Source: a virus (lineage: Duplodnaviria; Heunggongvirae; Uroviricota; Caudoviricetes). From it: a stretch of DNA of 12,678 nucleotides. The stretch lies in IMG/VR virus record IMGVR_UViG_2778261246_000007; one strand, written 5' to 3'. The notes under the pieces were generated by a model that was given only the letters and a program-made list of their open reading frames with translations, ran no database searches and had not been told where the DNA came from. Shown here one piece after another: positions 1-12,678 of the stretch; position 1 is the first letter of the stretch, and each line of letters begins with the position of its first letter. Position numbers and translations under genes: made by a program.

Positions 1-141
1 TTACTGCTTACACTGTAAGAACGCCGCAAACTCCGCTCCCCAGAAGCTCATCCGTATTTCGCACAGCGAACCGTGCAGCATCCAGATGATGAGGATTGCC
101 GTCACGCAGAACGTGATGGCCGTAAGCGATTTTTGCGACAT
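1..141 (-). CDS. Hok/Gef-family type I toxin (small membrane peptide), 46 aa
   Basis: Reverse-strand ORF (ATG at 139-141, TAA at 1-3) translating to MSQKSLTAITFCVTAILIIWMLHGSLCEIRMSFWGAEFAAFLQCKQ. It has a hydrophobic N-terminal helix followed by SLCEIR and E-x-AAFL-x-CK, the Hok/Gef signature as I recall it (HokA-like). AAGGAG Shine-Dalgarno lies 8 nt upstream (rc of 150-155). The 8..271 ORF in the track is a different frame overlapping this gene, in the position of a mok-like reading frame. Confidence 0.6.
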   Translation of the reverse strand: MSQKSLTAITFCVTAILIIWMLHGSLCEIRMSFWGAEFAAFLQCKQ

Positions 142-331: not shown

Positions 332-592
332 TTAATTCTGAGATAAGGGCAAACTCATCTGATTGTTCCCCCTGTGTGAAGCTGGCAGAGCCTGCCACGG
401 TATGTCTTCTGAAGAATGAACTTCTGAGGTGTGTTTTGATGTGAACTTATGAAAAGCTTCCAGTGTTGAGAAGCATACGCCGCATTCCAGGTTATTACAC
501 TGGTAATACTTTTGCCGCACGGTGTTTGAGTCATTTTCCGGACGACTGGTGCGGATACGGGCAGACGCGCCACAAAGTGGACAACGGAACAT
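332..592 (-). CDS. ogr: Ogr/Delta-family zinc-finger late gene transcriptional activator
   Basis: 86-aa ORF MFRCPLCGASARIRTSR...YYQCNNLECGVCF with the C-x2-C...C-x4-C arrangement and ARTSR motif of P2 Ogr. Strong SD AAGGGAGG 5-6 nt upstream of the ATG (rc of 593-610). Confidence 0.88.
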   Translation of the reverse strand: MFRCPLCGASARIRTSRPENDSNTVRQKYYQCNNLECGVCFSTLEAFHKFTSKHTSEVHSSEDIPWQALPASHRGNNQMSLPLSQN

Positions 593-1016
593 AGCGACCT
601 CCCTTAACGTGGTGTTTCTATTATTCTAAGTTGTACTAATACTGATTCCAACTAACTGCTTGCTTTGAGTGAAAACCAGAAGTTTGCAGTTGAATTTTCA
701 CTGAGTAAGTAGTCGAGATTGACTATGCACTAGTAGGATTATTCTACGTGATTGAAGGCAACTTGTTGGTATGTAGATGATTTTACTGGTGGCAGTGTTG
801 TAAGTTTTTATCTCCCCGGTTTGTCTTTGACGCTATCTACTAGTTATTTAGTCGTGCTAAAATAAAACGCTGATTGAGTTCCTTTGGGTTAGGTTGATAA
901 CTCTCAGAGACTTTGGGAGGTGTAAGATTCGAACTTAATCGCTAAGTTTCATACTCTTGGCACTCGTTTGCCTCTACAAAAGTATGTTTTTTAACACAAA
1001 TAAAAGAAGTGCATTT

Positions 1017-2429
1017 ATGAGTATTCAACATATAAAAGTTGGCAGTATATCAGAAATTATTGATCTATCATCTAATTCTGGCGAGCATGCTGATTCTCAT
1101 CCTTTTATCCTCTCGAAGAACTGTGTATGGGGAGAACAGGGGGCAGAAATATCAATTGAGAAATTGCGCCAAAATATTGAGCCCTGGCTAACAGCTCTCT
1201 TCCAATCAGAGCATTTAAATTTATTAATCGGTGCAGGCTTAAGCTCGGCTATTCAAAAATCAGCTACAGGTTTATCTCCAGTAGGGATGGGGTGGATTAA
1301 TGATTTAAAAGTATGTAAAAGCGAAATAGATGAATTTTCCACTCAGGCTGCAAAAGCTGCAGGTCGCGACAGAGGAAATATAGAAGACCAAATTAGAACT
1401 ATCAATGAACTTATTAAAGGTCTCGAAATTTTAACGGTGTTAAATACTCCTCAACCAGAAAATCCGCCACCTCCTTATTCTGCTTATAGAAACTTAAAAG
1501 CAGACTTGGGCGAGCTCAAAGGCGAGCTTTCTAGATGCTTGGGGGAGTTTTCTAAATCTATAATTAAAGGAGAATATTTAATCAAAACTGCTGAACCAGC
1601 CCGGAAAGAGGAAACTTTCAACTATCTAGTTAGTTTTTTGATGAGCTTTGCAAGTAGAACTGCCACTCGCGATAGGCTACATATCTTTACAACAAATTAT
1701 GACCGTATTATTGAAGTGGGTGCTGAGCTTGCTGGTTTAAGACTTATTGATCGCTTTGTAGGAAGTATTGCTCCAGTATTTCGATCCTCAAGATTAGAAG
1801 TTGATTATCATTATAATCCTCCTGGAATCCGTGGTGAACCAAGATACTTGGAGGGCGTGGCACGTTTTACTAAACTTCATGGTTCCCTTGATTGGCATGA
1901 ACAAAATAATGCGATTAGGCGCTTTGGCTTACCCTTTGGAGCACGTTCTGTTGAGCCGTTTTTGGAAGCCGAAGGTCATCAAAGCAATGGCTATGAAAAA
2001 CTGATGATTTACCCTAATTCAGTAAAAGACAGAGAAACAGCCGAGTATCCTTATGTTGAGCTATTTCGAGATCTGGCAGCAGCAACTAGCCGTCCAAATA
2101 GCACATTAGTCACTTATGGTTATAGCTTTGGTGATGAGCATATCAATAGAGTAATTGAAGACATGCTTACGGTACCTTCCACTCATATAGTAATAATAGC
2201 CTTTGGCGATCCACTTGGCAGAATTATGCGTTTCATTAGTAATAGTGGAAGAAAAGCACAGATCACCCTTTTAATGGGAGATCATTTAGGAGACTTCAAA
2301 ACTTTAGTTGATAACTATTTACCTAAACCAGCTATTGATAAAGCATCAATCAAGATGGCAGAGTTGCTCAAACAAAGAGGCTTTATGCAGTTCAAAGAGT
2401 TAGGTAATTCAGCCGAAGTTGAGGTATGA
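1017..2429 (+). CDS. SIR2-like (SIR2_2/DUF4020-type) NAD-binding protein, predicted NADase effector of a SIR2-HerA system
   Basis: Motifs read directly from the translation: LLIGAGLS (nt 1221-1244, GAG Rossmann motif), FTTNYD (nt 1686-1703), KLHGSLDW with HGS (nt 1878-1886). Start is ambiguous: ATG 1017 is preferred (MSIQHIK...), alternatives are TTG 957 and ATG 984; none has a strong SD. The TGA stop at 2427-2429 overlaps the downstream start region. Confidence 0.82.
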   Translation: MSIQHIKVGSISEIIDLSSNSGEHADSHPFILSKNCVWGEQGAEISIEKLRQNIEPWLTALFQSEHLNLLIGAGLSSAIQKSATGLSPVGMGWINDLKVCKSEIDEFSTQAAKAAGRDRGNIEDQIRTINELIKGLEILTVLNTPQPENPPPPYSAYRNLKADLGELKGELSRCLGEFSKSIIKGEYLIKTAEPARKEETFNYLVSFLMSFASRTATRDRLHIFTTNYDRIIEVGAELAGLRLIDRFVGSIAPVFRSSRLEVDYHYNPPGIRGEPRYLEGVARFTKLHGSLDWHEQNNAIRRFGLPFGARSVEPFLEAEGHQSNGYEKLMIYPNSVKDRETAEYPYVELFRDLAAATSRPNSTLVTYGYSFGDEHINRVIEDMLTVPSTHIVIIAFGDPLGRIMRFISNSGRKAQITLLMGDHLGDFKTLVDNYLPKPAIDKASIKMAELLKQRGFMQFKELGNSAEVEV

Positions 2430-2431
2430 CA

Positions 2432-4465
2432 ATGAGTTATTTACCAATAGAAAAAATAGAACAACTAAGAATTGGAACTGTTGAGTTTGTATCACCTAAT
2501 GAAATTAGGGTGTCTTTAGAGATTGATTCTCCTGATTCAGTATCACTTCAAGGTGGGGCGCCTCGTAATTTTCCTAGAATAAATAGTTATATTTTAATCC
2601 GTAGTGATGACGGGTTTCTTGTTGGGCAAGTTGAGTGGATTGCAATAGAAAACTCGCCATATCCCAAAAGAAGAGGCTTACAAGATTTTGGGTTGATAGA
2701 CCTTCCTTTCCCACTTAAAAAGCTCAGTATCAATCCAGTTGGTACATTGAGAGTTGATAGAAAAAACGAAGGTTTCAGGTTCACGAGAGGAACTGATGCT
2801 TTCCCTTCGGTTGGTGACTCTGTGCTTTTGCCTACTGACCGACAATTACAATCAATAATTGAATCAGGTGATAATAGAAGGGTAAAAATAGGGGATAGCC
2901 CCCTAGCTAACAATGCTGAAATAAAAGTAGACCCCGATAGACTTTTCGGACGACATATAGCTGTTTTAGGTAATACGGGTAGTGGTAAATCATGTTCGGT
3001 GGCCGGCTTAATTCAATGGTCTCTTGATGCTGTTTTACAACAGGGAAAATCTCCAAATGCTCGATTTATAATACTTGATCCGAACGGAGAATATAGTAGA
3101 GCTTTAGGGCCAGAATCAAGATATAAGGGTAAACTATTACGTGTAGAGGCTAACATCGATGTCGGAGAGATGGATCTTAAAGTACCTTCATGGTTATGGA
3201 ATAGTTCTGAGTGGGCTGCTTTCACTCAAGCAAGTTCAAAGGTGCAACTTCCTTTACTACGTCGTGCTTTGAGGGCAATGAGGAATAATCTTCTATCAGA
3301 AGATGATGTGAAAATTCAAGCCAAACGCTTTTGCGGTATCCTTCTTGTATCTATGAGACAGCAGGCAAGTCAAGGTCAGATATATGTGAATAGTGGATCT
3401 GCTAAAGGTTTGGTTGAAACTTTGGGTTCTTGGAGAGATAGTATTTCTATCTTAAACGAGAGAATTGTTGATAAATCGCTCGATAAGCTAATAAACACAA
3501 TAAATACGTATCTTTCTTCACGAAGTGGATCTTCTTGGCCAGCAAAGCCTGTTGTTTCCGAGATTGAGTTGTTGATTAATGGATTTAGAGATGCATATAC
3601 AGCTCTAGGGGGAGATGAACAAGAACTTCTTCCAAAAAGCGAAGATGCGCCTATGCGTTTTAAAGGCGATGATTTTGTCGCATATCTCGAAGCTCTGGCT
3701 CAAGAAACAGGTACAGAACAATTCGTGGAGTTTCTTTTGACTCGTATTCGAACAATGCTAGGTGACACTCGTATTAGTGCAGTAACCAATGATTCTGTAA
3801 AGCCTATAAGTTTAACTAATTGGTTAGACACTTTTCTCGGTAAAAATGAACAAGGATCTATAACTGTTATAGATTTATCTCTAGTACCAAATGAAATAAT
3901 TCATTTGGTAACAGCTGTAATTTCTAGGGTGGCTTTTGAAGCACTACAACGTTATCGAAGATTAAATGGAAGGCCGCTACCAACAGTTTTAGTTGCAGAA
4001 GAAGCGCATACGTTTATTAAACGTTACAAGGAAGATAGTGAAACTCAGTCAGTCTCTGATATATGTTGCAAGGTGTTTGAAAAGATTGCACGGGAAGGAA
4101 GAAAGTTTGGGCTAGGCCTTGTTGTTTCTTCCCAAAGGCCATCAGAGCTATCTCCGACGGTTTTATCTCAATGTAATACTTTTTTGTTGCACAGGATTAG
4201 TAATGATAGAGATCAAGAGCAAGTACATAGACTTGTTCCAGATAATATGAGAGGGCTGTTGAGAGAGCTGCCATCGTTACCATCTAGGCATGCTATTTTA
4301 CTTGGATGGGCTTCAGAACTTCCTGTTTTAGTTAGAATGAAAGAGCTTACTGAAAAACAACGACCGCAATCTGATGATCCTGATTTTTGGGATGTGTGGT
4401 CTGGCACTACAAAAGAACCTCGGAAAGTTAATTGGCAACAGATAGCTGATGATTGGCAAAGTTGA
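2432..4465 (+). CDS. herA: HerA-family (FtsK/HerA superfamily) P-loop ATPase, partner of the SIR2 protein
   Basis: Walker A GNTGSGKS (nt 2969-2992), ILDPNGEY motif, Walker-B-like VLVAEEAH (nt 3986-4009), VVSSQRPSEL, and about 170 residues before the P-loop where HerA proteins have their HAS-barrel. ATG 2432 has GAGG 7 nt upstream; the alternative ATG 2426 overlaps the SIR2 stop as ATGA. Confidence 0.88.
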   Translation: MSYLPIEKIEQLRIGTVEFVSPNEIRVSLEIDSPDSVSLQGGAPRNFPRINSYILIRSDDGFLVGQVEWIAIENSPYPKRRGLQDFGLIDLPFPLKKLSINPVGTLRVDRKNEGFRFTRGTDAFPSVGDSVLLPTDRQLQSIIESGDNRRVKIGDSPLANNAEIKVDPDRLFGRHIAVLGNTGSGKSCSVAGLIQWSLDAVLQQGKSPNARFIILDPNGEYSRALGPESRYKGKLLRVEANIDVGEMDLKVPSWLWNSSEWAAFTQASSKVQLPLLRRALRAMRNNLLSEDDVKIQAKRFCGILLVSMRQQASQGQIYVNSGSAKGLVETLGSWRDSISILNERIVDKSLDKLINTINTYLSSRSGSSWPAKPVVSEIELLINGFRDAYTALGGDEQELLPKSEDAPMRFKGDDFVAYLEALAQETGTEQFVEFLLTRIRTMLGDTRISAVTNDSVKPISLTNWLDTFLGKNEQGSITVIDLSLVPNEIIHLVTAVISRVAFEALQRYRRLNGRPLPTVLVAEEAHTFIKRYKEDSETQSVSDICCKVFEKIAREGRKFGLGLVVSSQRPSELSPTVLSQCNTFLLHRISNDRDQEQVHRLVPDNMRGLLRELPSLPSRHAILLGWASELPVLVRMKELTEKQRPQSDDPDFWDVWSGTTKEPRKVNWQQIADDWQS

Positions 4466-4563
4466 GATGTTTAACCAATTTCCAGTGGGGCTATAAGCAG
4501 TGTCTCATATTTGAGATAGGAAGGAGCTGATTCCTTTCGATTGATACAGTACGAAATTATATA

Positions 4564-4589
4564 TGTCCGCTCTTGGCACAGAGCGGACA
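4564..4589. terminator. Perfect 9-bp inverted repeat hairpin between the convergent HerA and D genes; likely D terminator, possibly bidirectional
   Basis: tgtccgctc (4564-4572), loop ttggcaca, gagcggaca (4581-4589). On the minus strand it is followed by AT-rich tatataatttcg. It lies about 45 nt past the D stop and about 100 nt past the HerA stop. Confidence 0.4.
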
Positions 4590-4633
4590 GTCAGAAAACT
4601 GAAGGGGGTAGGCGTGCAATACATCTTAGCTGA

Positions 4634-5743
4634 TCAAGCTGTTTCTGCTATCCATTCCGGGATTTTTGCCTCAAGTTCAAGCTGCGTGGTAAAGCCGCTG
4701 TTATCAATGGTGTGCTCGGCTTTTGCAATAATCCAGTCCTGATTATCAATCTCGCTTTTAAATCCTGTTACCGTGCCATGCATTTCGGGGTAGAGTTCTG
4801 CTCGTCCACGTGCCAGCGTGATGGAGAATGATGCGGCTCCGCGTTGTAGTTGTTGCCACTTTGCCGCCGCTGCGCGTCTTGCTGCCTGCTCGTTCTGATA
4901 AGTCTTGCGTAACACAAACACATTGCCTTCCGCGCCTTCCATATAATCACCTTCACGGCTGCTGCTTTTCTCTTTTTTCGGTTTTGGCGGTTTGCGGCGT
5001 TTCACGCTGACTTTTTTCTTTTTCCCGTAATTAAGATCAAGCCAGTAAGCGCGTACCCCCGTATACGACTCGCGGTCAGCAATGCGGAACTGATGGCGAT
5101 CGCCGCTGCTGCGTGTGATGGCGAACGATGGCAACGGCTGGCCCTGTGCGTTCACGCCACCGCCGGGCATGATGAATAACAGATTACCGCTTTTTACTGT
5201 GGTGATTGCGCCCAGCATTTCCGCCATGCGCGTAAGGAAGGACATGTCACTTTCTTCGGTCTGGTCGGCGTGGTCGATTTCGATATCCATCAGCATTTCG
5301 CTGATTTGCGGTTTCAGACCGTACCGATGAGCGATGGCGGATACCACACGCTCAACGGTCACATCATGCCAGGACACCTCACGTTTAACGTTAAATTCAT
5401 CCCGAAAATCTGCGCTTCTGGCTGAAACAGTCAGCCTGTCCGGCGGTCCTTCGTGTGCGATTTCATCAACAATGTAAGTGCCTTTTTCTGTCAGCGGTTC
5501 GCCTTTCCAGCCAATGAGAACCGTCAGGCGCGCGCCCCGTGGCGCTAGCTGCAACTGACCATCCGCATCATCCAGCGTGATGGTGAGCTGGTCCGCCTCA
5601 AATCCCCGGTTGTCGGTCAGTGACAGGGTCATCAGGCGCTCTGCCACGCCTGACAGCGTTTTACCCTCCGCGAGAATATCAAAATCCGGCATTTTCACGG
5701 GGTCTGTGCCCTGACTGAGCAATTGCATGGTGGTATCGGTCAT
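4634..5743 (-). CDS. D: P2 gpD-like tail protein (late control gene D)
   Basis: 369-aa ORF with P2 D-like sequence as I recall it. Start is taken at ATG 5741-5743, preceded by AGGGAGGG SD (rc of 5749-5756), rather than the longer 413-aa track ORF. Confidence 0.85.
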   Translation of the reverse strand: MTDTTMQLLSQGTDPVKMPDFDILAEGKTLSGVAERLMTLSLTDNRGFEADQLTITLDDADGQLQLAPRGARLTVLIGWKGEPLTEKGTYIVDEIAHEGPPDRLTVSARSADFRDEFNVKREVSWHDVTVERVVSAIAHRYGLKPQISEMLMDIEIDHADQTEESDMSFLTRMAEMLGAITTVKSGNLLFIMPGGGVNAQGQPLPSFAITRSSGDRHQFRIADRESYTGVRAYWLDLNYGKKKKVSVKRRKPPKPKKEKSSSREGDYMEGAEGNVFVLRKTYQNEQAARRAAAAKWQQLQRGAASFSITLARGRAELYPEMHGTVTGFKSEIDNQDWIIAKAEHTIDNSGFTTQLELEAKIPEWIAETA

Positions 5744-5900
5744 CTGTTCCCTCCCTGTGTGGCATGGTCGCATGTGCGTGCGGAGGGGGTTACTGCTTTT
5801 TGTTGTCGCCGGGTCGGGAGAACGGCGCAGGGGTGAGATTACGCGCGTGGTGGGTGATGATTGTTGCCGAATCATTTAACGGATACAAGGGGCTGAAGCT

Positions 5901-7085
5901 ATGAGTGAAACTCGTTTTCATGGTGCCCGTGTTACGGAAAATACCGACCTGGTAACAGCGATTAACGATGTTGATTCCAGCGTTATCGGTATCGTGGCAA
6001 CGGCGGATGATGCGGACGCGAAGCTGTTCCCGCTGAACAAGCCCACATTGCTGACCCGCGTCAATGACGTGCTGGGAAAATGCGGAACAACGGGGACGCT
6101 TTATCGTGCGCTTAAGGCCATCGCAGACCAGGTGAGCACAAAGGTGATCGTCGTTCGCGTGGCTGAACACAAAGAAGAAGACGGAAAGACGCAGGATCAA
6201 CTGGTTATCGGTGGTTCTGAGGATGACGGCAGCTATACGGGGATGTATGCGTTGCTTGTTGCAGAGCAGGATGAAAGCATCGGATACCGTCCGCGTATTC
6301 TGGCCGCGCCGGAGCTGGACACGGAGGCTGTAACAAAATCCCTGTGCGTGATTGCAGGTAAACTGCGCGCGTTTGTGTATGCCTCATGTCACGGCTGTAA
6401 CACGATGGCTGAGGCGATTACCTATCGCCAGAAATTCAACGAACGTGAGGTGATGCTCTTATGGCCGGACTTCATCGCCTACAACCCGAAAAGTGGCAAA
6501 AACGAAACGTTCCCCGCGCCTGCCTATGCGTGCGGCCTTCGTGCGTACATTGACCATGAGCAGGGGTGGCACAAATCACTGTCCAACGTTCCGGTTAAAA
6601 ATGTGCTGGGGATGTCGAGGCATGTGTTCTGGTCGTTGCAGGCCGAAGACAGCGATGCCAACAGCCTCAACAACAAAGAAATCACGACCATTATTCGTCG
6701 CAACGGGTTCCGCTTCTGGGGCAACCGCACACCGGAAACGAACGCCTACATCTTTGAGGTGTATACCCGAACCGCACAGGTGCTGGCTGATTCAATTGCG
6801 GAAGCGCAGTTTGAAACCATCGACAGTCCACTGACGCCTGCGAACGTGAAGGATGTTATCAGTGCCATCAGGGCAAAACTGGATTCGCTGGTTACTGCCG
6901 GGAAACTGATTGGCGCGGAGTGCTGGTATGACGTGGTGGATAACGGCACCACGGATTTACGTCAGGGGCGTGTGCGTATTCGCTACAAATATACGCCCGT
7001 TCCGCCACTGGAAGACATGGAGCTTTACCAGACGTTTACTGATGAATTCTTTGGTCCCGCATTTGCGGTGCTGGGAGGTGCCTGA
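5901..7085 (+). CDS. FI: Contractile tail sheath protein (P2 gpFI-like)
   Basis: 394 aa with recognisable gpFI blocks (NKPTLLT, GFRFWGNRT, YTRTAQV, YKYTPVPPLE). SD aagggg upstream; stop overlaps the FII start as TGATG. Confidence 0.92.
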   Translation: MSETRFHGARVTENTDLVTAINDVDSSVIGIVATADDADAKLFPLNKPTLLTRVNDVLGKCGTTGTLYRALKAIADQVSTKVIVVRVAEHKEEDGKTQDQLVIGGSEDDGSYTGMYALLVAEQDESIGYRPRILAAPELDTEAVTKSLCVIAGKLRAFVYASCHGCNTMAEAITYRQKFNEREVMLLWPDFIAYNPKSGKNETFPAPAYACGLRAYIDHEQGWHKSLSNVPVKNVLGMSRHVFWSLQAEDSDANSLNNKEITTIIRRNGFRFWGNRTPETNAYIFEVYTRTAQVLADSIAEAQFETIDSPLTPANVKDVISAIRAKLDSLVTAGKLIGAECWYDVVDNGTTDLRQGRVRIRYKYTPVPPLEDMELYQTFTDEFFGPAFAVLGGA

Positions 7086-7597
7086 TGGCTGTACCAAAAC
7101 ATCTTCGCTTTTTTACGTTGTTTGTGGATGGTGAAAACGAAGTGGGTAAAGTGACATCCGTCACGCCGCCCAAACTGACGCGCAAAACCGACAGCTATCG
7201 TGGTGGTGGCATGATGGGGGCGGTAAGTATTGATCTCGGTCTGGACGACTCCGCGCTTGATGCGAGTTTTGTTATGGGGGGGGCTGTTCGTGCGCTGTTC
7301 CTTAAATATGGCGGCACGATTGACGGCACGCTGCTGCGTTTTGCGGGTGAATACTACACCGATGCAGAAAGCGATCTGTATGAAATCGAGATGCGCGGAC
7401 GTGTGACGGAAATTGATATGGGGGAAGCCAAACAGGGCGAAGCCACATCACACACTTACGCTGTCAAAAACACCTACTACAAGCTGAGCGTTAACGATCG
7501 CCCGCTGTGGGAAATCGACCTGTTGAACCACATCTACCGGAAGGACGGCAAGGACATTGTGCCTGACCGTATCCGTTCCGCGCTTGGGCTTGGCTGA
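7085..7597 (+). CDS. FII: Tail tube protein (P2 gpFII-like)
   Basis: 170 aa immediately after FI with overlapping stop/start, GGGAGGTG SD upstream; size and position match gpFII. Confidence 0.88.
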   Translation: MAVPKHLRFFTLFVDGENEVGKVTSVTPPKLTRKTDSYRGGGMMGAVSIDLGLDDSALDASFVMGGAVRALFLKYGGTIDGTLLRFAGEYYTDAESDLYEIEMRGRVTEIDMGEAKQGEATSHTYAVKNTYYKLSVNDRPLWEIDLLNHIYRKDGKDIVPDRIRSALGLG

Positions 7598-7652
7598 TAA
7601 GTAATATGCAGGCGGCGCAGTGCGTCGCCTCTGACTGAAAAGGAGACAACTG

Positions 7653-8027
7653 ATGAAAGACATCGATACTGAAACCCGGAATAACACCGTGGCGGATGAT
7701 GTGACGGCAGGTGAGGATATGGCTGTCGAACGTGGCGTAAAACTTTCCCGGCCAATTGAGCGTGGTGCCGAAAAAATCACATATGTGGAAATCACCGGGG
7801 CTATTGAGCAGGCGGGATCCCTGCGTGGTCTGTCGCTGTCTGATGTGCTGAATCTGAAAGCGGATACCATGTTCACGCTGTTGCCTCGCGTGACCTCGCC
7901 ACGACTGGATGAAGTGATGATTAAAAAAATGTCGTCACGCGATTTTATTCAGTTGTGCGCTGTGGCTGTAAATTTTATGAGCGAGCCAGACTCTGGCGCG
8001 AAGAGCGTGCAGGAGACGGCAGCGTAA
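7653..8027 (+). CDS. E: Tail assembly chaperone gpE-like (zero-frame product)
   Basis: 124-aa ORF with AAGGAG SD 7 nt upstream, located between tube and tape-measure genes as in the P2 FETUD operon. Confidence 0.8.
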   Translation: MKDIDTETRNNTVADDVTAGEDMAVERGVKLSRPIERGAEKITYVEITGAIEQAGSLRGLSLSDVLNLKADTMFTLLPRVTSPRLDEVMIKKMSSRDFIQLCAVAVNFMSEPDSGAKSVQETAA

Positions 8028-8191
8028 TTACCCTGGTGTGCTTTGAGCACATCGAAGATCTGGTGGCGGATATTGCCGCCATTTTTAACTGGTCGCCCGC
8101 CGAAATCTTCATGATGACGCCCGGCGAAGTGGTTAGCTGGCGTGAGCGGGCGGCACTTCGCAGCGGGAATGTAGATAATGAAGACTCTTGA
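7653..8191 (+). CDS. gpE+E' frameshift fusion product (E N-terminus to 7976, then -1 frame to stop at 8189-8191)
   Basis: Overlapping -1 frame ORF downstream of the slippery site; analogous to P2 E/E+E' and lambda G/GT. The fusion ends inside the start of T. Confidence 0.55.
7970..7976 (+). other. Slippery heptamer A_AAT_TTT for programmed -1 frameshift E to E+E'
   Basis: In the E frame the codons are gtA AAT TTT, an X_XXY_YYZ heptamer. The -1 frame from here is open to 8191 and matches the track ORF 7955..8191 (KFYERARLW...). Confidence 0.6.
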
Positions 8192-10985
8192 TATCCGGGT
8201 CGCTTTCAGCGCCGTTGACAGGCTGACCCGGCCTGCCGAAAACGCCCGCCGCCTGATGGGGCAGTTTGGTGACTCCATCCAGCGAACGCAGGGGGCGATC
8301 AAAAATCTCGAGCGTCAGGCGCGTTCATTTGAGCGCGCCCGTGACGCTGTCAGTAAAGCGGATGCGGGCATCGTGAAAGCACGACGCCAGCTTAACGCCC
8401 TTAATCAGTTACAACGCACGGGTACAGTGCTCAGCGAAAAACAACAAAAGCTGATGCAGCAGTTAAGCACCCGGCTTGAACGCCTGAATGAATCGCGCAC
8501 ACGGGAAATTCAGAAAATGCGGGAGCTTGGCGGAGAACTGAAACGCCACGGCATTTCCCTGACAGGCAGCGATAACACCATTCAGCAGGCCATCAGACGC
8601 ACCGAACAATACAACAACCAGCTTGAACGCGAACGGCAGGCGCTTGCGCGTGTAACGCGGGCGCGTGAGCGGTATTCGCGCGCGCAGGAAACAGCGGGAA
8701 AACTGAAAACAGGTGGTGCGCTGGCAATTGGTGCGGCAGCGGCGGGCGGCTATGCTGCCGAGCGTTTTTTGCAGCCTGCGATCGGGTTCGGGAAAGAGAT
8801 GTCCCGCGTTCAGGCACTGACGCGAATCGACAAAAACAGCCCGCAGTTTAAGGCGCTGCGTGAGCAGGCGTTAAAACTTGGCTCTGAAACGCAGTTCACC
8901 GCAGGCGATGCCGCCAGTGGGCAGGCATTTCTTGCAATGGCTGGCTTCACACCGCAGGCCATTCAGGCTGCGCTCCCTGGCGTACTGAGCATGGCAACGG
9001 CTGGCGGTATGGACCTCGGTGAGACGGCGGATATTGGCTCAAATATTCTGACGCAGTTCGGTCTTTCTGCTGACCAGATGGACCGGGTCGGCGACACACT
9101 CACCGCAGCGTTTACCCGTACCAACACTGACCTTCGCGCACTGGGTGAAACCATGAAATATGCAGGTCCGGTGGCGGGTAAGCTGGGAATATCGCTGGAG
9201 CAGGCCGCAGCGATGGCGGGCGTGCTGGCGAATATGGGTATCAGGGGGAGTGATGCTGGTACGGCAATGCGTGCCAGCCTGGCTCGTCTGGCATCACCGC
9301 CAAAGGCGGCAGCAGAGGCGCTGAAAGAGCTTGGCGTGTCTGTCTCGGATGCCGGGGGCAAAATGCGCCCGATGGAGGATGTGCTGGCTGACCTTTATAA
9401 AGCTACCCGCAAATACGGGGAAGTTGACCGGGTATCGTTCTTTAAGGACATTGCCGGAGAAGAGGCTTTCACATCATTTATGGCCCTCGTTGATGCGGCA
9501 GGTGACGGCTCCTTACCCAAACTGAGAAAAGAACTTGAAGGCGCGCGCGGTGAGGCTGAACGCACGGCAAAGGTTATGGCCAACAACCTTGACGGCGATC
9601 TGAAATCACTCAGCAGTGCATGGGAAGGGTTGCGCATCCGCATTGCAGATCTGATTGACGGTCCGCTGCGTTCTGTCACGCAGTGGCTCACGCGTGTGGT
9701 ATCAAAGGTGACGGCGCTGGCGCAGGCCCATCCCGCACTGACGCGCCAGCTACTGATTGCAGGCGGTGCACTGCTGGCAATGACTGCAACGGTTGGCTCG
9801 TTGTCGCTGGCTATTGGTGTGTTTGCTGGCCCGCTGGCAAAACTGCGTCTTGGTTTTTCCCTCCTGACCGGATCAATGAATGCTGTCAGGGTTCTGCCAG
9901 CACTATGGGGAATGGTGACGGGTTCCGTTTCTTTACTGGGAGGCGCTATCGGGGCGTTGTTCAGTCCGGTTGGTCTTATCGTGGTTGCGCTTGCCGGAGC
10001 TGCCGTTCTTATCTGGAAATACTGGGATCCCATCAGGGCATTTTTTGCCGGAGTGTTCAGCGGGATTATGGAAAGGCTGACCCCGTTGCGCGAAACCTTT
10101 GAACGGTTTGGTCCTGTTTTTGACGCAATCGGGAGTGGGATCAGCCAGGTGTTTAACTGGTTTAAATCGCTGCTGTCACCGATGGAGTCCAGCAAGGAAA
10201 CTCTGGATAAATGTACCAGTGCTGGCGAGATATTCGGTAACGTTCTTGGCGGTGCGTTACAACTTGTTCTGACACCTGCAAAAATGTTGCTGGATACGCT
10301 GGCGTGGATACTTGAAAAGCTTGGTGTGCTTCCGGATGAAGCGGAAAGGGCGCGCAAGAAAATCGAAGACGCACAGCGTGCGGCCATTCTTCAGGACAAG
10401 GTTGCCTTGCTTCAGGGGGACCTGGCGAAAATCAATCCGCCGAAGCCTGTGGAAAATGGCAATGGCACCGGAGGTGATAACCCCAAAGACAATAAACCGC
10501 TCACAGACAGCAATACCGGTACGCTGCGCAGACTCAGCAAAATTGCTGATAACACAGGTAAGCTGGTTGATGAGACGAAAAAACGCATTGGCCCCGGCGA
10601 TATTGTCTTTAAGAACCTGCCCCGCGCACTTGCTGTTCGTGGGGAGTGGCAGGAGCGGAAGATTGCACAGGTCAGTAAGCCTGCTTCCGCAATCAACATC
10701 ACACCTGTGGTCCCGGCTCCGCTGCCTCCGGCGCTGGTCCCTGTTGTTGCGGCCAGCTCCCGCCCGGTGGCGGAGGCCATACGATCGCCAGTGGCATCAG
10801 TTCCTGCAACTTCCCGTAACCGGGAGCCTGCTGTCTCCGGATTTTGCGGTGAAATTCATGTTCATCTGCATAACGTTGTTACGCAGAATCCCCGCGAACT
10901 GGCGAAACTGGTCGGTGAAATGGTCAGGGCAGAAATGGAACGGCGCGCCCGTGCCGGGCGTGGCAGTTTTTACGATAAAGATTGA
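8178..10985 (+). CDS. T: Tail tape measure protein (P2 gpT-like)
   Basis: 935 aa; coiled-coil-rich N-terminal part, Gly/Ala-rich hydrophobic central segments and a Pro-rich C-terminal region; sits between E/E' and U. Confidence 0.9.
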   Translation: MKTLDIRVAFSAVDRLTRPAENARRLMGQFGDSIQRTQGAIKNLERQARSFERARDAVSKADAGIVKARRQLNALNQLQRTGTVLSEKQQKLMQQLSTRLERLNESRTREIQKMRELGGELKRHGISLTGSDNTIQQAIRRTEQYNNQLERERQALARVTRARERYSRAQETAGKLKTGGALAIGAAAAGGYAAERFLQPAIGFGKEMSRVQALTRIDKNSPQFKALREQALKLGSETQFTAGDAASGQAFLAMAGFTPQAIQAALPGVLSMATAGGMDLGETADIGSNILTQFGLSADQMDRVGDTLTAAFTRTNTDLRALGETMKYAGPVAGKLGISLEQAAAMAGVLANMGIRGSDAGTAMRASLARLASPPKAAAEALKELGVSVSDAGGKMRPMEDVLADLYKATRKYGEVDRVSFFKDIAGEEAFTSFMALVDAAGDGSLPKLRKELEGARGEAERTAKVMANNLDGDLKSLSSAWEGLRIRIADLIDGPLRSVTQWLTRVVSKVTALAQAHPALTRQLLIAGGALLAMTATVGSLSLAIGVFAGPLAKLRLGFSLLTGSMNAVRVLPALWGMVTGSVSLLGGAIGALFSPVGLIVVALAGAAVLIWKYWDPIRAFFAGVFSGIMERLTPLRETFERFGPVFDAIGSGISQVFNWFKSLLSPMESSKETLDKCTSAGEIFGNVLGGALQLVLTPAKMLLDTLAWILEKLGVLPDEAERARKKIEDAQRAAILQDKVALLQGDLAKINPPKPVENGNGTGGDNPKDNKPLTDSNTGTLRRLSKIADNTGKLVDETKKRIGPGDIVFKNLPRALAVRGEWQERKIAQVSKPASAINITPVVPAPLPPALVPVVAASSRPVAEAIRSPVASVPATSRNREPAVSGFCGEIHVHLHNVVTQNPRELAKLVGEMVRAEMERRARAGRGSFYDKD

Positions 10986-10997
10986 GGAGTCATGGCC

Positions 10998-11486
10998 ATG
11001 ATGATGATCTATGGCATGTTTGTTTTTGAGCTGCGCACGCTGCCGCATCAGCAGTTACAGCAAAACAAAAGCTGGCGGCATGTGAAAAATGAACGCGTTA
11101 ACCGTTCAGCAAGCTGGCAGTATATCGGTGCAGGTGATGATCGCATCGTTCTTTCTGGTGTGCTTTATCCTGAAATTACAGGTGGCGAAGTGTCGCTGTC
11201 GCTGCTGACCACGCAGGCGTATACAGGACGACCCTGGCCTTTGATTGATGGCGTCGGGCAGATTTACGGCATGTATGTCCTGACCGGAACGAATACGATC
11301 CGTTCCGAGTTTGATCGCTACGGTAAGGCGAAAAAGATAGAATTTTCACTGACCCTTGAACGCTGTGATGAGGATTTGCGGGAGCGCCTGCAATCCTCAT
11401 CGTTCAGCGATATGCTGTCCGGCTTCAAAGATAAGGTGGCGTCATCCCTTAACAGTGCGGTCAGTTCTGTTAAGGGACTGTTCTGA
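10998..11486 (+). CDS. U: Tail protein gpU-like
   Basis: About 162 aa starting MMMIYGMFVFELRTLP..., resembling P2 gpU as I recall it. GGAG lies 9 nt upstream of ATG 10998; ATG 10992 is an alternative start. Confidence 0.82.
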   Translation: MMMIYGMFVFELRTLPHQQLQQNKSWRHVKNERVNRSASWQYIGAGDDRIVLSGVLYPEITGGEVSLSLLTTQAYTGRPWPLIDGVGQIYGMYVLTGTNTIRSEFDRYGKAKKIEFSLTLERCDEDLRERLQSSSFSDMLSGFKDKVASSLNSAVSSVKGLF

Positions 11487-11529
11487 TTTAACGCAAATCA
11501 CAAATAGTTAGATAAACAGAAATAACGAT

Positions 11530-11556
11530 AAGGCCCGATATTCGGGCCTTTCGTTT
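11530..11556. terminator. Bidirectional rho-independent terminator between convergent U and tail-fibre assembly genes
   Basis: Stem aaggcccg (11530-11537), loop atatt, cgggcctt (11543-11550), followed by tcgtttatt on the + strand and by atcgttatttctgttt on the minus strand. Confidence 0.65.
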
Positions 11557-12088
11557 ATTCTGGTTGATCAGGGAACGTAACGGGTAATTCAGTGGTATCA
11601 GTGGTCTCAACTTGTTGCACGTACCGCATCCAGCGCATCAGTTGTTGCTTATCTGAATCACTGATAATCCCTAATGCAAGCTGGGTCTGCCAGAACTGCG
11701 TTTTTTCTCTGGCCTGCTGTAATAACCTTTGTTTCTGGTTTTCAGCCTGCAAGCGTTGCTCTTCTTCGGTATACACACGTTTAATGACTGAGCCATCTTT
11801 AAACATCCAGTTACCTGAAATATCAGCGCGTCGGTTTGCTGTAATATTAGGCAACTCGACAACACTTTTTCCTTCCGGGCAAATTGCAGTTACATCCGTT
11901 TGCACGTCGCATATGACATTATTTTCATCATATGCAATCTTTATGGTGTCTGGCTGAAAGTTCTTTTGTTCCTCATACCAGTTTTTACCATCTTCAGCGA
12001 ATAACCAGACAACGCCGGAGTTTTTAGTTAACAGGTACTGTTCTTTTGTTTTTGGATTGCCCGGTTTTATATTTTTTAAATGCATCAT
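11555..12088 (-). CDS. Tail fibre assembly protein (Tfa / P2 gpG-like chaperone)
   Basis: 177 aa starting MMHLKNIKPGNPKTKEQY... with WYEEQKNFQPDT and C-terminal TDTTELPVTFPDQPE typical of Tfa proteins. ATG at 12086-12088 lies 2 nt from the upstream tail-fibre stop. Confidence 0.85.
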   Translation of the reverse strand: MMHLKNIKPGNPKTKEQYLLTKNSGVVWLFAEDGKNWYEEQKNFQPDTIKIAYDENNVICDVQTDVTAICPEGKSVVELPNITANRRADISGNWMFKDGSVIKRVYTEEEQRLQAENQKQRLLQQAREKTQFWQTQLALGIISDSDKQQLMRWMRYVQQVETTDTTELPVTFPDQPE

Positions 12089-12090
12089 AA

Positions 12091-12657
12091 TCAAACACTC
12101 GATACGTTATACCATGTACCATTAATATTTTTTTGAATTGGTCTGTAATAAACACCACCAATATTATCGGCAGAGTTTGAGCCTGTATCCTGAACGATAA
12201 TCCCGGTATATGCGCAACCAGATGGAGCCTGATGCGTCCATGTTGTACCGTTATTTGCTGGTTTATAGGATGACGCACCACCAAGTCTAATATCCCGGAC
12301 ATAGCGTGAATCAAAGTTGCCATAGTTAGATGGTGATACCTGCCCGTTAACAGCAAAAGTGATGCTGTTATCTGTATTTCTCTGACTGTAAAAATGCCAG
12401 CCTGCATCATCACCTAATTCAGCCACCACCGGACGACTTGCGTTTCCCCACAAATTGAATGCGGCTTCCTTCGTGGATGTATTGCTGCTGCTGACCGTGA
12501 ACTTTTTCCCGCTACCGGCACGTACTTTGGTACTTGAGACAATATCACCTGTGAGCTGGCCCCCTGAAATACCAGACAGTAGATGTATCTTAAAATAAGA
12601 GATAGGCTTGGATATATGTCTAACACTAGTTCTAATTTTGAGATGGCTGGCGTTTTG
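12091..12657 (-). CDS. Tail fibre C-terminal (receptor-binding) segment, start-less within the window
   Basis: The frame is open from 12657 down to the stop at 12091-12093 and ends ...GGVYYRPIQKNINGTWYNVSSV. The only in-frame canonical start is TTG at 12451-12453. An in-frame stop at 12658-12660 lies upstream, and the other frames there do not look coding. Confidence 0.5.
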   Translation of the reverse strand, partial: QNASHLKIRTSVRHISKPISYFKIHLLSGISGGQLTGDIVSSTKVRAGSGKKFTVSSSNTSTKEAAFNLWGNASRPVVAELGDDAGWHFYSQRNTDNSITFAVNGQVSPSNYGNFDSRYVRDIRLGGASSYKPANNGTTWTHQAPSGCAYTGIIVQDTGSNSADNIGGVYYRPIQKNINGTWYNVSSV

Positions 12658-12678
12658 TTAGGAAAAGAGGTGCGTAAA

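Follow-up and report, generated by a model that had tools for sequence, protein, structure and literature searches.

The window analysed here, a 12,678-nucleotide stretch of a caudoviricete record (IMG/VR IMGVR_UViG_2778261246_000007), carries an insert low in GC and some 4 kb long, at about 632-4638, between the ogr and gpD genes of a P88-like E. coli prophage. Within it, sir2 and herA lie adjacent on the same strand, a pairing that is kept in all relatives examined (Table 1). The prophage belongs to Xuanwuvirus (Peduoviridae) and is integrated beside ihfA. A reading made earlier from the sequence had called it P2-like, which holds at the level of the P2 family, but the carrier is P88-like rather than P2 itself. 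The GC content is 0.37-0.41 across ~750-4500 (~0.39), against 0.52-0.59 (~0.55) in the phage genes.

Table 1. Features of the cargo site and of the two genes that it holds. Sir2 residues are counted from ATG 1017 and HerA residues from ATG 2432.
Feature	Coordinates	Strand	Basis
hok/gef-family toxin gene, prophage end	1-141	-	RefSeq annotation in E. coli C7; Pfam HOK_GEF 4.1e-7
ogr/Delta zinc-finger late-gene activator, left conserved flank of cargo site	332-592	-	PF04606
Low-GC cargo insert, ~4.0 kb	632-4638	+	P88 comparison, two-piece match, GC profile
Non-coding upstream region, presumed native promoter	632-1016	+	Extent of homology, promoter scan
sir2, SIR2_2-family putative NADase effector, 470 aa, WP_000027066.1	1017-2429	+	Pfam, PADLOC, PDB, conserved N terminus
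Sir2 LLIGAGLS, residues 69-76, glycine-rich NAD-binding loop	1221-1244	+	G72, G74 invariant
Sir2 FTTNYD, residues 224-229, catalytic Asn227	1686-1703	+	N227 invariant; aligns with Nezha Sir2 FTTNYD
Sir2 HGS, residues 288-290, sirtuin catalytic His288	1878-1886	+	H288, G289, S290 invariant; aligns with Nezha KLHGSL
Gene junction	2421-2435	+	Shine-Dalgarno GAGG 2421-2424, ATGA 2426-2429, HerA ATG 2432
herA, 677 aa, WP_029488695.1 (679 aa from 2426)	2432-4465	+	Pfam, PADLOC, PDB, AF2/Foldseek
HerA Walker A GNTGSGKS, residues 180-187, Lys186	2969-2992	+	Invariant
HerA ILDPNGEY, residues 214-221, Asp216	3071-3094	+	D216, E220 invariant
HerA Walker B VLVAEEAH, residues 519-526	3986-4009	+	E524 invariant
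HerA QRPSEL, residues 568-573	4133-4150	+	Q568-R569-P570 invariant
10-bp GC-rich hairpin between herA and gpD	4564-4589		Terminator score on - strand, downstream of gpD
gpD (late control D / baseplate hub), right conserved flank	4634-5743	-	RefSeq coordinates; Phage_GPD 2.2e-17

The window matches P88-like phages in two pieces, the insert being missing from P88 and its relatives. By-eye comparison with P88 shows that the insert stands in place of 7 bp of the spacer between ogr and D, and that the final gpD codon and its stop come from the right end of the insert (AETE* in P88, AETA* here); no direct or inverted repeats were found flanking the insert. An insertion with exact junctions that is not in phage P88 and is foreign in GC bears out the earlier claim that the pair is prophage cargo. 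Its presence or absence between conserved phage genes, its foreign composition and the alternative genes found at the site in related phages are the marks of a moron or hotspot cargo. A 413-codon reading frame for gpD that reaches 5875 was rejected as an over-extension against the RefSeq coordinates. The hok/gef-family gene is context and stands outside the Sir2-HerA system, while the hairpin downstream of gpD may end the herA transcript too.

Among 15 unrelated complete genomes, whose sources are cattle, birds, pigs and humans, the operon keeps an identity of at least 99%, and at least 1000 contigs encode the exact Sir2 protein. In all ten of the places listed for the exact Ogr allele, the Sir2-HerA pair adjoins it. 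E. coli C7 is 100% identical to the window over 600-4640; in its prophage the portal gene is frameshifted and gpX truncated, so phage-mediated spread of that copy is doubtful. R997, an element of the SXT/R391 family, and a tRNA-Phe island also carry related copies of the cassette. Similarity to these copies starts only at ~974-990, and the stretch 632-975 is present only in the 15 prophage-bearing complete genomes. The best promoter candidate upstream of sir2 is an extended -10 element (TGcTAAAAT, 855-863), a weak assignment because a consensus scan of this region returned no strong plus-strand promoter and no convincing sigma-70 promoter.

Start codons, motifs and family assignment

The plus-strand reading frame of sir2 spans 957-2429 (490 codons from a TTG), and the gene had earlier been taken to begin at that TTG. 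This is an over-extension: homologues and RefSeq begin at a conserved M-x-I-Q-x-I-K-V-G, which makes ATG 1017 most likely the start, with ATG 984 (481 aa) as a further alternative. The herA frame spans 2426-4465 (679 codons); at the ~6% stop codons expected from local composition, the probability that 677 codons stay open by chance is near 1e-20. Between the two genes, the Sir2 stop codon (2427-2429) lies 2 nt ahead of the conserved HerA ATG, or overlaps ATG 2426. The overlapping ATGA that had been taken as the junction is indeed present, but it is a derived feature. In relatives the junction is GAGGTATCACAATGAGT, where the Sir2 end ...EVSQ* overlaps the HerA start MSYLP, and in the window a C-to-G change ends Sir2 two codons sooner, at a TGA, and also creates an ATG in frame with HerA. 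A conserved GAGG stands 7 nt 5' of ATG 2432, the likely real start of HerA.

Every motif quoted in the sequence-only reading is found in the translations. Residues G72, G74, N227 and H288 of Sir2 are invariant across 30 homologues, giving it the glycine-rich NAD loop and the catalytic Asn and His of a SIR2_2-type subunit. In HerA, K186, D216, E220, E524 and R569 are invariant across 28 representatives of 28-56% identity, and the invariant Q568-R569-P570 contains, by analogy with HerA and FtsK proteins in general, the likely arginine finger. Some 180 residues precede the HerA Walker A. The protein is laid out as an N-terminal β-barrel, a RecA-like ATPase core and a long all-helical insert; with its Walker A, DxxGEY, Walker B (EE) and SQRPSE motifs, it has the features of the HerA clade.

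The profile searches that had been suggested as a check confirm the assignment of both proteins. Sir2 matches Pfam SIR2_2 (4.5e-8, 33.7 bits, cut-off 24.5) and, over near full length, the PADLOC SIR2 model PDLC04079 (3e-155). HerA matches Pfam DUF87 (2.7e-23, 83.7 bits, cut-off 23.2) and, again near full length, the PADLOC HerA model PDLC04098 (1.9e-252); the PADLOC matches are far beyond chance. Sequence searches of the PDB return only defence Sir2 and HerA chains, at 2e-48 to 1.8e-36 for HerA. For Sir2 the match to 8j4u_A (3.6e-21) is alignable over residues 171-412 only, and similarity to 8w9l is weak (4.7e-9). In Foldseek, the top matches of both models are Sir2 or HerA subunits of SIR2-HerA or DUF4297-HerA complexes. 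The AF2 model of HerA (pLDDT 84.7, with an all-β N-terminal domain) is closest to defence HerAs (8wld, 1.6e-33, TM about 0.63), and the top 34 matches of the Sir2 model, a weak one with pLDDT 61, are all Sir2 subunits of SIR2-HerA complexes. Family profiles, sequence and fold searches against the PDB, and invariant catalytic residues thus agree with the earlier interpretation of the pair as a SIR2-HerA antiphage operon.

Probable match to the type III system and rival readings

It had been suggested that this AT-rich variant might be new. The operon is, however, already known: the subtype has been classified, cloned and dissected as ‘type III Sir2-HerA’ (Zhang et al., NAR 2026, PMC13434337). 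In that study, 2289 E. coli genomes, those that could be had by October 2020, were mined for sir2 and herA genes lying side by side, and types I-III were defined; four further E. coli clusters are reported to have given no protection. Type III, cloned with its native promoter, was protective and was dissected biochemically. Sir2 N238A was without NADase activity, HerA K188A abolished ATPase activity and the ATP checkpoint, and HerA D218A abolished nicking and defence, making this Asp a nickase determinant (PMC13434337).

In the window, the Asn of FTTNYD is residue 238 when counted from ATG 984, and the Walker A Lys and the DPNGEY Asp are residues 188 and 218 when counted from ATG 2426. One rule, the longest ATG-initiated reading frame, thus yields all three published positions. 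RefSeq and the gene calls of the sequence collection start at 1017 and 2432, giving N227, K186 and D216, so that the match requires that the authors used longer frames; both the 481-aa Sir2 and the 679-aa HerA nevertheless occur in public automated annotations. Alleles of 85-89% identity lack the upstream HerA ATG, and K188 therefore fits a window-type allele only. The Walker A Lys and the DPNGEY Asp are spaced by 30 residues here and by 24, 26, 31, 34 and 34 in five other defence HerAs of known structure, and the identity to Nezha (~20%) is consistent with the 13-22% given in PMC13434337. The identification is based on the three residue numbers and on the coverage of the paper's pipeline, rather than on sequence alignment. 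We consider it very probable that the locus was acquired horizontally as a moron and is a functional abortive-infection operon of the same system and allele type as type III Sir2-HerA, its function being predicted from sequence.

Two other readings have to be weighed against the type III identification. The pair could be a genuine Sir2-HerA system that belongs to type I, type II or one of the four non-protective E. coli clusters of PMC13434337, and its gating might then resemble that of Nezha, a passive response to falling ATP with no dedicated phage-protein trigger or nickase. The motifs are common to all Sir2-HerA subtypes, and the match to type III was drawn from residue numbers, which public annotations give differently, rather than from sequences. 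We nonetheless consider such a membership unlikely. Three independent residue numbers fit a single rule, the two longer proteins are present in automated annotations, and a spacing of 30 is seen in none of the five other solved defence HerA subfamilies. Moreover, no other allele of the subfamily comes close to that of the window in frequency in E. coli, which makes it the likely PCR template.

Less credible still is that the pair is a prophage addiction or stabilisation module, or decaying cargo that is not expressed, with no primary role against phages. A hok/gef toxin gene does lie nearby at the prophage end, no strong promoter was detected upstream, the C7 prophage bears pseudogenes, and ISVsa5 has inserted within sir2 in two pig isolates. 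Against this, both reading frames are intact with all catalytic residues conserved, the operon is nearly identical across the 15 unrelated complete genomes, and the exact Sir2 protein is widespread. Other defence systems occupy the same junction in sister prophages, and members of the family cloned with their native promoters are reported to protect against phages (PMC13434337).

Proposed mechanism and the cargo site

As the residue positions and the Lys-to-Asp spacing match type III, the published type III mechanism is the likely one, and we infer by analogy that the window system would behave in the same way. After PMC13434337, Sir2 and HerA would form a quiescent complex, which phage single-strand-binding proteins (T7 Gp2.5, T4 Gp32) or T7 Gp5.9 would remodel, freeing a HerA nickase whose activity requires the aspartate of DPNGEY, and priming the Sir2 NADase. 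Nicks would give rise to end-exposed DNA that stimulates the Walker-A-dependent HerA ATPase, and the consumption of ATP would lift a checkpoint imposed by ATP binding to HerA. Sir2, through the Asn of FTTNYD, would then deplete NAD+, and the infected cell would halt growth before phage release. For type III itself, the main text reports phage protection with NAD+ depletion, and describes two oligomeric states by size-exclusion chromatography and no structure (PMC13434337). The sequence-only reading had invoked NAD+ depletion in a supramolecular complex, which is the Nezha picture; to this, type III adds phage-protein triggers, a HerA nickase and the ATP checkpoint (PMC13434337). In a lysogen, the operon would presumably protect the host, and hence the prophage, from other phages. 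P2-family phages are not known to encode a single-strand-binding protein of their own and, more speculatively, may for this reason tolerate a system that such proteins trigger.

The ogr-gpD junction is a busy cargo site. A synthetic empty-site sequence, used as a probe of occupancy across 5426 complete genomes, matches in 1202, of which 720 have a contiguous junction; ogr and gpD are separated or half-matched in ~480, up to ~40%, which is an upper bound on occupancy. Sampling of the site turned up six further cargos: the hxsDBCA radical-SAM system, GAPS6, and single genes for a DUF3800 protein, a 500-aa PIN protein, a 340-aa HEPN-like protein and a 221-aa hypothetical protein. We tentatively raise the possibility, on balance the less probable one, that this junction of P88-like (Xuanwuvirus/Gemsvirus) E. 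coli prophages is a defence hotspot not explicitly described before. If so, the uncharacterised single genes would be candidates for new defence functions.

Comparison with known systems

The pair shares with Nezha (8J4U, 8SU9, 8SUB, 8UAE) the Sir2 motifs FTTNYD, KLHGSL and GFGDxHINR and the HerA Walker A, Walker B and SQRPSE motifs, with the same folds over near full length, and both are ATP-gated abortive-infection NADases (in the window, by prediction). However, identity is ~20% (19-21% in structural alignments), Sir2 has 470 aa here and 415 in Nezha, HerA 677 and 610, and the Lys-to-Asp spacing is 30 rather than 24. Nezha in the narrow sense (cluster 1, 70% identity) is ruled out by this identity, the HerA sequence match being 1.8e-36, and scores against the NCBIfam anti-phage equivalogs lie far under their cut-offs (SIR2 128 against 500, HerA 225 against 850). 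According to PMC13434337, Nezha, which has both helicase and nuclease activities, is primed and passively released as ATP falls, whereas type III requires phage-protein triggers and uses a nickase without helicase activity; its HerA is reported to be unable to substitute for that of Nezha, type I or type II.

The SIR2-HerA systems of Paenibacillus sp. 453MF (8WLD, 8WIV, 8W9L; PMC11472057), whose 8WLD structure fits the HerA model best, and of S. aureus (8YHX, 8YHO; PMC11514289) combine a large Sir2 ring with a HerA hexamer and have NADase and ATPase activities. The two-gene design is held in common at 15-24% identity, but complex formation alone activates the NADase in those systems, while the type III complex is reported to stay silent until triggered. 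HerA is equally close to that of DUF4297-HerA (8XAU/8XAV, 8ZIQ, 9C1M; 9c1m 2e-48 by sequence, 8xav 2.9e-33 by fold), a system that is ruled out by the SIR2_2 partner, which has no DUF4297 match.

With the P2-like defence hotspots (gpA-gpQ old/tin; Z/fun; PMC9122126, PMC9519451, PMC13586616) the locus shares a low-GC defence operon between conserved genes and alternative systems at one site in sister phages, although its site is the ogr-gpD junction of P88-like phages rather than either of the two classical ones; SIR2 with HerA was earlier reported in a P4-satellite hotspot. The closest likeness is to type III (PMC13434337), in species, two-gene architecture, divergence from Nezha, the three residue positions and the spacing of 30, with no demonstrable difference in a comparison made by residue positions rather than sequences. 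The main text of that paper, as searched, holds no description of genomic context, and the prophage location, the ogr-D insertion site and the copies in an integrative element and a genomic island are what the present analysis contributes.

A SIR2-HerA operon as prophage cargo

The window corresponds to the right arm of an Escherichia coli prophage of the P2 family, and its flanks (1-631 and 4639-11497) match P88-like phages in two pieces (Xuanwuvirus P884B11, 97.7%; P88, 95.8%), so that these phages are without the intervening stretch. From sequence alone this had been read as a SIR2-HerA antiphage operon carried as prophage cargo. That reading is supported by family HMMs, by matches in the Protein Data Bank (PDB) and by the insert being missing from P88-like phages, and it is confirmed that both the defence operon and its cargo status can be recognised from raw sequence. 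Over 600-4640 the window is 100% identical to E. coli strains C7 and C3 in a complete-genome comparison; another 13 complete genomes, whose sources were cattle, poultry, pigs, beef and humans, are at least 99% identical.

On the left, homology to P88 stops after ...attctaagtt (~631), and on the right it restarts at ctgtttc(t/c)gctatccattccggg (~4639). The ~4.0 kb insert takes the place of 7 bp of P88, and because these held the gpD stop codon, gpD takes its stop from the insert and ends AETA* (AETE* in P88). Both the final codon of gpD and its stop are provided by the right end of the insert (4634-4640), and this essential tail gene is thus slightly rewritten by the insertion. No direct or inverted repeats were found flanking the insert as marks of transposition or site-specific insertion, and the cargo probably arrived via recombination at the gene junction. 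GC content is 0.37-0.41 over ~750-4500, compared with 0.52-0.59 in the phage genes, and the value of ~0.39 for the cassette suggests that the donor may have been a low-GC gammaproteobacterium.

A search of E. coli placed the 344-bp stretch that precedes the cassette (632-975) only in the same 15 prophage-bearing complete genomes. Homology to cassette copies in other elements begins only ~27-43 bp before the Sir2 ATG, and each genomic context therefore brings its own upstream region. A promoter scan of the + strand over 632-1016 found no strong promoter, the only candidate in a relaxed scan being a weak extended -10 at 855-863.

Features of the window (gene order from the strain C7 annotation, converted to window coordinates), cargos at other ogr|gpD junctions and further cassette copies
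Feature	Position or source	Strand	Remark
ihfA	outside window		chromosomal flank (strain C7)
hok	1-141	-	hok/gef toxin gene at prophage end beside ogr; Pfam 4.1e-7
ogr	332-592	-	strain C7 annotation
SIR2 family protein	1017-2429	+	strain C7 annotation
ATP-binding protein	2432-4465	+	strain C7 annotation
10-bp GC-rich hairpin	4564-4589		between herA and gpD
gpD	4634-5743	-	strain C7 annotation
tail sheath, tube, E/E', tape measure, U	after gpD	+	strain C7 annotation
tail-fibre assembly and tail-fibre genes	after U	-	strain C7 annotation
DUF3800 protein	O104:H4		junction cargo
221-aa hypothetical protein	E2348/69		junction cargo
GapS6a and 930-aa protein	CH427		junction cargo
340-aa protein	B7A and phage 500465-2		junction cargo; HEPN_RiboL-PSP match below threshold
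500-aa PIN-domain protein	O111:H8		junction cargo
hxsDBCA His-Xaa-Ser radical-SAM system	strain B2		junction cargo
cassette copy	L005:9028-12482		85-89% protein identity
cassette copy	L004:9043-12491		85-89% protein identity

The FI-to-U tail genes run opposite to gpD, and a rearrangement caused by the insertion was rejected as the explanation, since P88 is arranged alike and the orientation is thus normal for the genus. The annotated start of gpD is inconsistent, as RefSeq calls either 369 aa (start 5743) or 266 aa depending on the genome; the 413-codon open frame (4634-5875) over-extends. No RNA family was matched by Rfam across the whole window at gathering thresholds, including any sok-like RNA beside hok. 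The tail-fibre module (11487-12678) differs from that of P88 in having no DNA invertase after gpU, and its tail-fibre-assembly and fibre genes, of lower GC (0.40-0.47), have their matches (79-92% identity) in Yersinia phages rather than in P88-like phages, which points to a putative swapped host-range module. In the strain C7 prophage, gpX is truncated and the portal gene is frameshifted (L001:38526-38723 and 43983 onward); this copy may be defective though its defence operon is intact.

The Sir2 and HerA proteins and their gene starts

Both open frames and every motif quoted in the sequence-only reading are present, and frames of 470 and 677 codons cannot be due to chance in DNA so AT-rich. 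Profile HMMs bear out the family assignments: Sir2 matches Pfam SIR2_2 (4.5e-8, over the gathering cut-off) and the PADLOC SIR2 model PDLC04079 (3e-155), while HerA matches Pfam DUF87 (2.7e-23) and, end to end, the PADLOC HerA model PDLC04098 (1.9e-252). By PDB sequence search, the nearest solved structure to Sir2 is the Sir2 subunit of Nezha, a solved E. coli SIR2-HerA (8j4u_A, 3.6e-21, residues 171-412), in an alignment that pairs FTTNYD, KLHGSL and G(Y/F)xFGDxHINR. The corresponding HerA matches are defence HerAs (9c1m, 2e-48; 8wiv, 5.5e-48; Nezha 8j4u_M, 1.8e-36). Scores against the curated NCBIfam equivalogs for anti-phage SIR2 and HerA are both far under their cut-offs, and this, together with the strong family matches, identifies the pair as a bona fide SIR2-HerA member of a subtype distant from those solved; PDB searches with both proteins found no structure of the present subtype.

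The AlphaFold2 (AF2) model of HerA is good (pLDDT 84.7) and predicts an N-terminal β-barrel, a RecA-like core and a long all-helical insert (~258-470). Its best fold matches, with 20-24% identity and a TM score of ~0.6, are the HerAs of Paenibacillus SIR2/HerA (1.6e-33), DUF4297-HerA and Nezha. The Sir2 model, built from a 30-sequence alignment, is poor (pLDDT 61), above all where conservation is highest, presumably an effect of excessive similarity among the homologues. It served for a coarse fold search only, with no structural conclusions drawn from it, and in that search the best 34 PDB matches were all Sir2 subunits of SIR2-HerA complexes (15-21% identity).

G72, G74, N227 and H288 of Sir2 are invariant in 30 homologues (56-89% identity), as are the HerA Walker A residues G180, T182, G183, G185, K186 and S187, along with D216, E220, E524 and Q568-R569-P570, in 28 representatives (28-56% identity). 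The subtype has many members and a broad distribution: over 7000 Sir2 homologues were found at E ≤ 1e-5, the best 120 of which are all at least 58% identical, ~465 aa long and from Gammaproteobacteria, Synergistota, Bipolaricaulota and Bacillota, and HerA has 6044 cluster representatives at E ≤ 1e-3.

A Sir2 start at TTG 957 had been proposed, but the conserved M-x-I-Q-x-I-K-V-G places it at ATG 1017, in agreement with RefSeq and with homologues of 86-89% identity. The ATGA reported at 2426-2429 is present but proves to be a derived feature. In relatives the gene junction reads GAGGTATCACAATGAGT, with Sir2 ending ...EVSQ* and its TGA overlapping the HerA start MSYLP; in the window it reads GAGGTATGACAATGAGT. 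Relative to the sister alleles, a C-to-G change (TCA to TGA, window 2426-2435) ends Sir2 two codons early and yields a second in-frame HerA ATG at 2426, hence two consecutive ATGA motifs, and it is this additional ATG that splits gene callers between 677 and 679 aa for HerA. A conserved GAGG lies 7 nt ahead of ATG 2432, which is likely to be the true HerA start; sir2 and herA stay tightly coupled under either.

The ogr|gpD junction and the spread of the cassette

The cargo sits at the ogr|gpD junction, and its assignment to either of the classical P2 hotspots (gpA-gpQ and Z/fun) was rejected on the identity of its flanks. We searched 5426 complete genomes with a synthetic empty-site probe consisting of ogr and the 3′ end of gpD. 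The probe matched in 1202 genomes; 720 E. coli genomes have a contiguous junction, and in ~480 the halves are separated or a single half is matched. Occupied junctions sampled at the equivalent of window 592-4634 (loci L003 and L017-L022) hold six cargos other than Sir2-HerA. To judge by the title of reference 5 in PMC13434337, a His-X-Ser radical-SAM system has been described as defending against the entry of phage DNA. In P88-like prophages the ogr|gpD junction is a variable cargo site, exchanging several defence systems. A literature search for an ogr-gpD hotspot found no explicit description, and the site is possibly under-described rather than an established novelty. It could be a place to mine for new defence genes, and exchange at the junction helps to explain the spread of the system among E. 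coli, Proteus and Vibrio.

The assembly collection has 3021 indexed blocks with the exact Ogr allele that adjoins the cargo, and in all ten of the places shown for it the order is ogr-Sir2 (470 aa)-HerA (677 aa)-gpD and the prophage lies beside ihfA-pheT. The exact Sir2 protein occurs in at least 1000 contigs. In three other E. coli strains, cassettes of 88-89% protein identity adjoin tRNA-Phe, together with integrases and IS903B. One of 85-86% closely follows traN in R997, an SXT/R391 element of Proteus mirabilis (L016:6028-9482), and 85-86% cassettes are likewise found downstream of traN in an ICE integrated in E. coli XH1815 and in records of Vibrio parahaemolyticus. In two pig isolates (NZ_CM149870.1 and NZ_CM149862.1) the IS4-family element ISVsa5 is inserted in sir2 and splits the gene, a natural knock-out of the system.

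Probable identity with the type III system and proposed mechanism

From a screen of 2289 E. coli genomes for neighbouring sir2 and herA genes, Zhang et al. (Nucleic Acids Res 2026; PMC13434337) obtained eight clusters, and they challenged representatives cloned with their native promoters with 110 phages. They defined Nezha and types I, II and III, with a mutual identity of 13-22%. The type III residues that they mutated are N238 in Sir2 (NADase) and, in HerA, K188 (ATPase) and D218 (nickase). Counted from ATG 1017, the asparagine of FTTNYD in the window is number 227, and counted from the upstream ATG 984 it is number 238; in HerA, ATG 2432 places the Walker A lysine at 186 and the DPNGEY aspartate at 216, and ATG 2426 places them at 188 and 218. 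All three published numbers therefore follow from one rule, the longest ATG-initiated open frame, and public automated annotation has such calls (481-aa Sir2 in IMG; for HerA, 679 aa in Logan, ENA and one NCBI record). The 85-89% identical alleles would give K186, since the extra ATG is missing there. The lysine and aspartate of HerA lie 30 residues apart here, a distance that is not generic: it measures 24 in Nezha and 26 in Paenibacillus HerA, 31 in 8xau, and 34 in 8ziq as well as 9c1m. These residue numbers argue strongly that the window allele is very probably type III. Strains such as C7 and C3 were probably within the published genome set, so that, should the type III identity fail, the locus would still be one of the eight tested clusters.

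The system is accordingly already known, and the window most probably carries the allele studied. The suggestion that this AT-rich variant might be new gives way to a known, characterised subtype (PMC13434337), and carriage by a prophage, also thought possibly new, fits a well-documented pattern. As the subtype has been both classified and mechanistically dissected (PMC13434337), no new Sir2-HerA biology is added here; what remains of value is the genomic context and the hotspot, with the type III allele carried by a widespread P88-like prophage beside ihfA. Searches of the main text of PMC13434337 did not find this context there (prophage, ICE and island copies, or the ogr|gpD site).

Through the type III identification, the mechanism set out in PMC13434337 would apply to the present locus. 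In the uninfected cell the Sir2-HerA complex would be catalytically silent. [quoted passage not shown] Nicking would generate end-exposed DNA that stimulates the HerA ATPase (K188), and the resulting fall in ATP, along with the DNA ends themselves, would lead to NAD+ hydrolysis and growth arrest (PMC13434337). The residues needed for each step are present in the window proteins and invariant. Considering the conservation of the prophage cassette, the native-promoter activity of the cloned system and the nature of the site, we infer that the prophage copy may be expressed and protect its lysogen. According to PMC13434337, type III differs from Nezha in that no helicase activity was seen, and its HerA is no substitute for that of Nezha, type I or type II.
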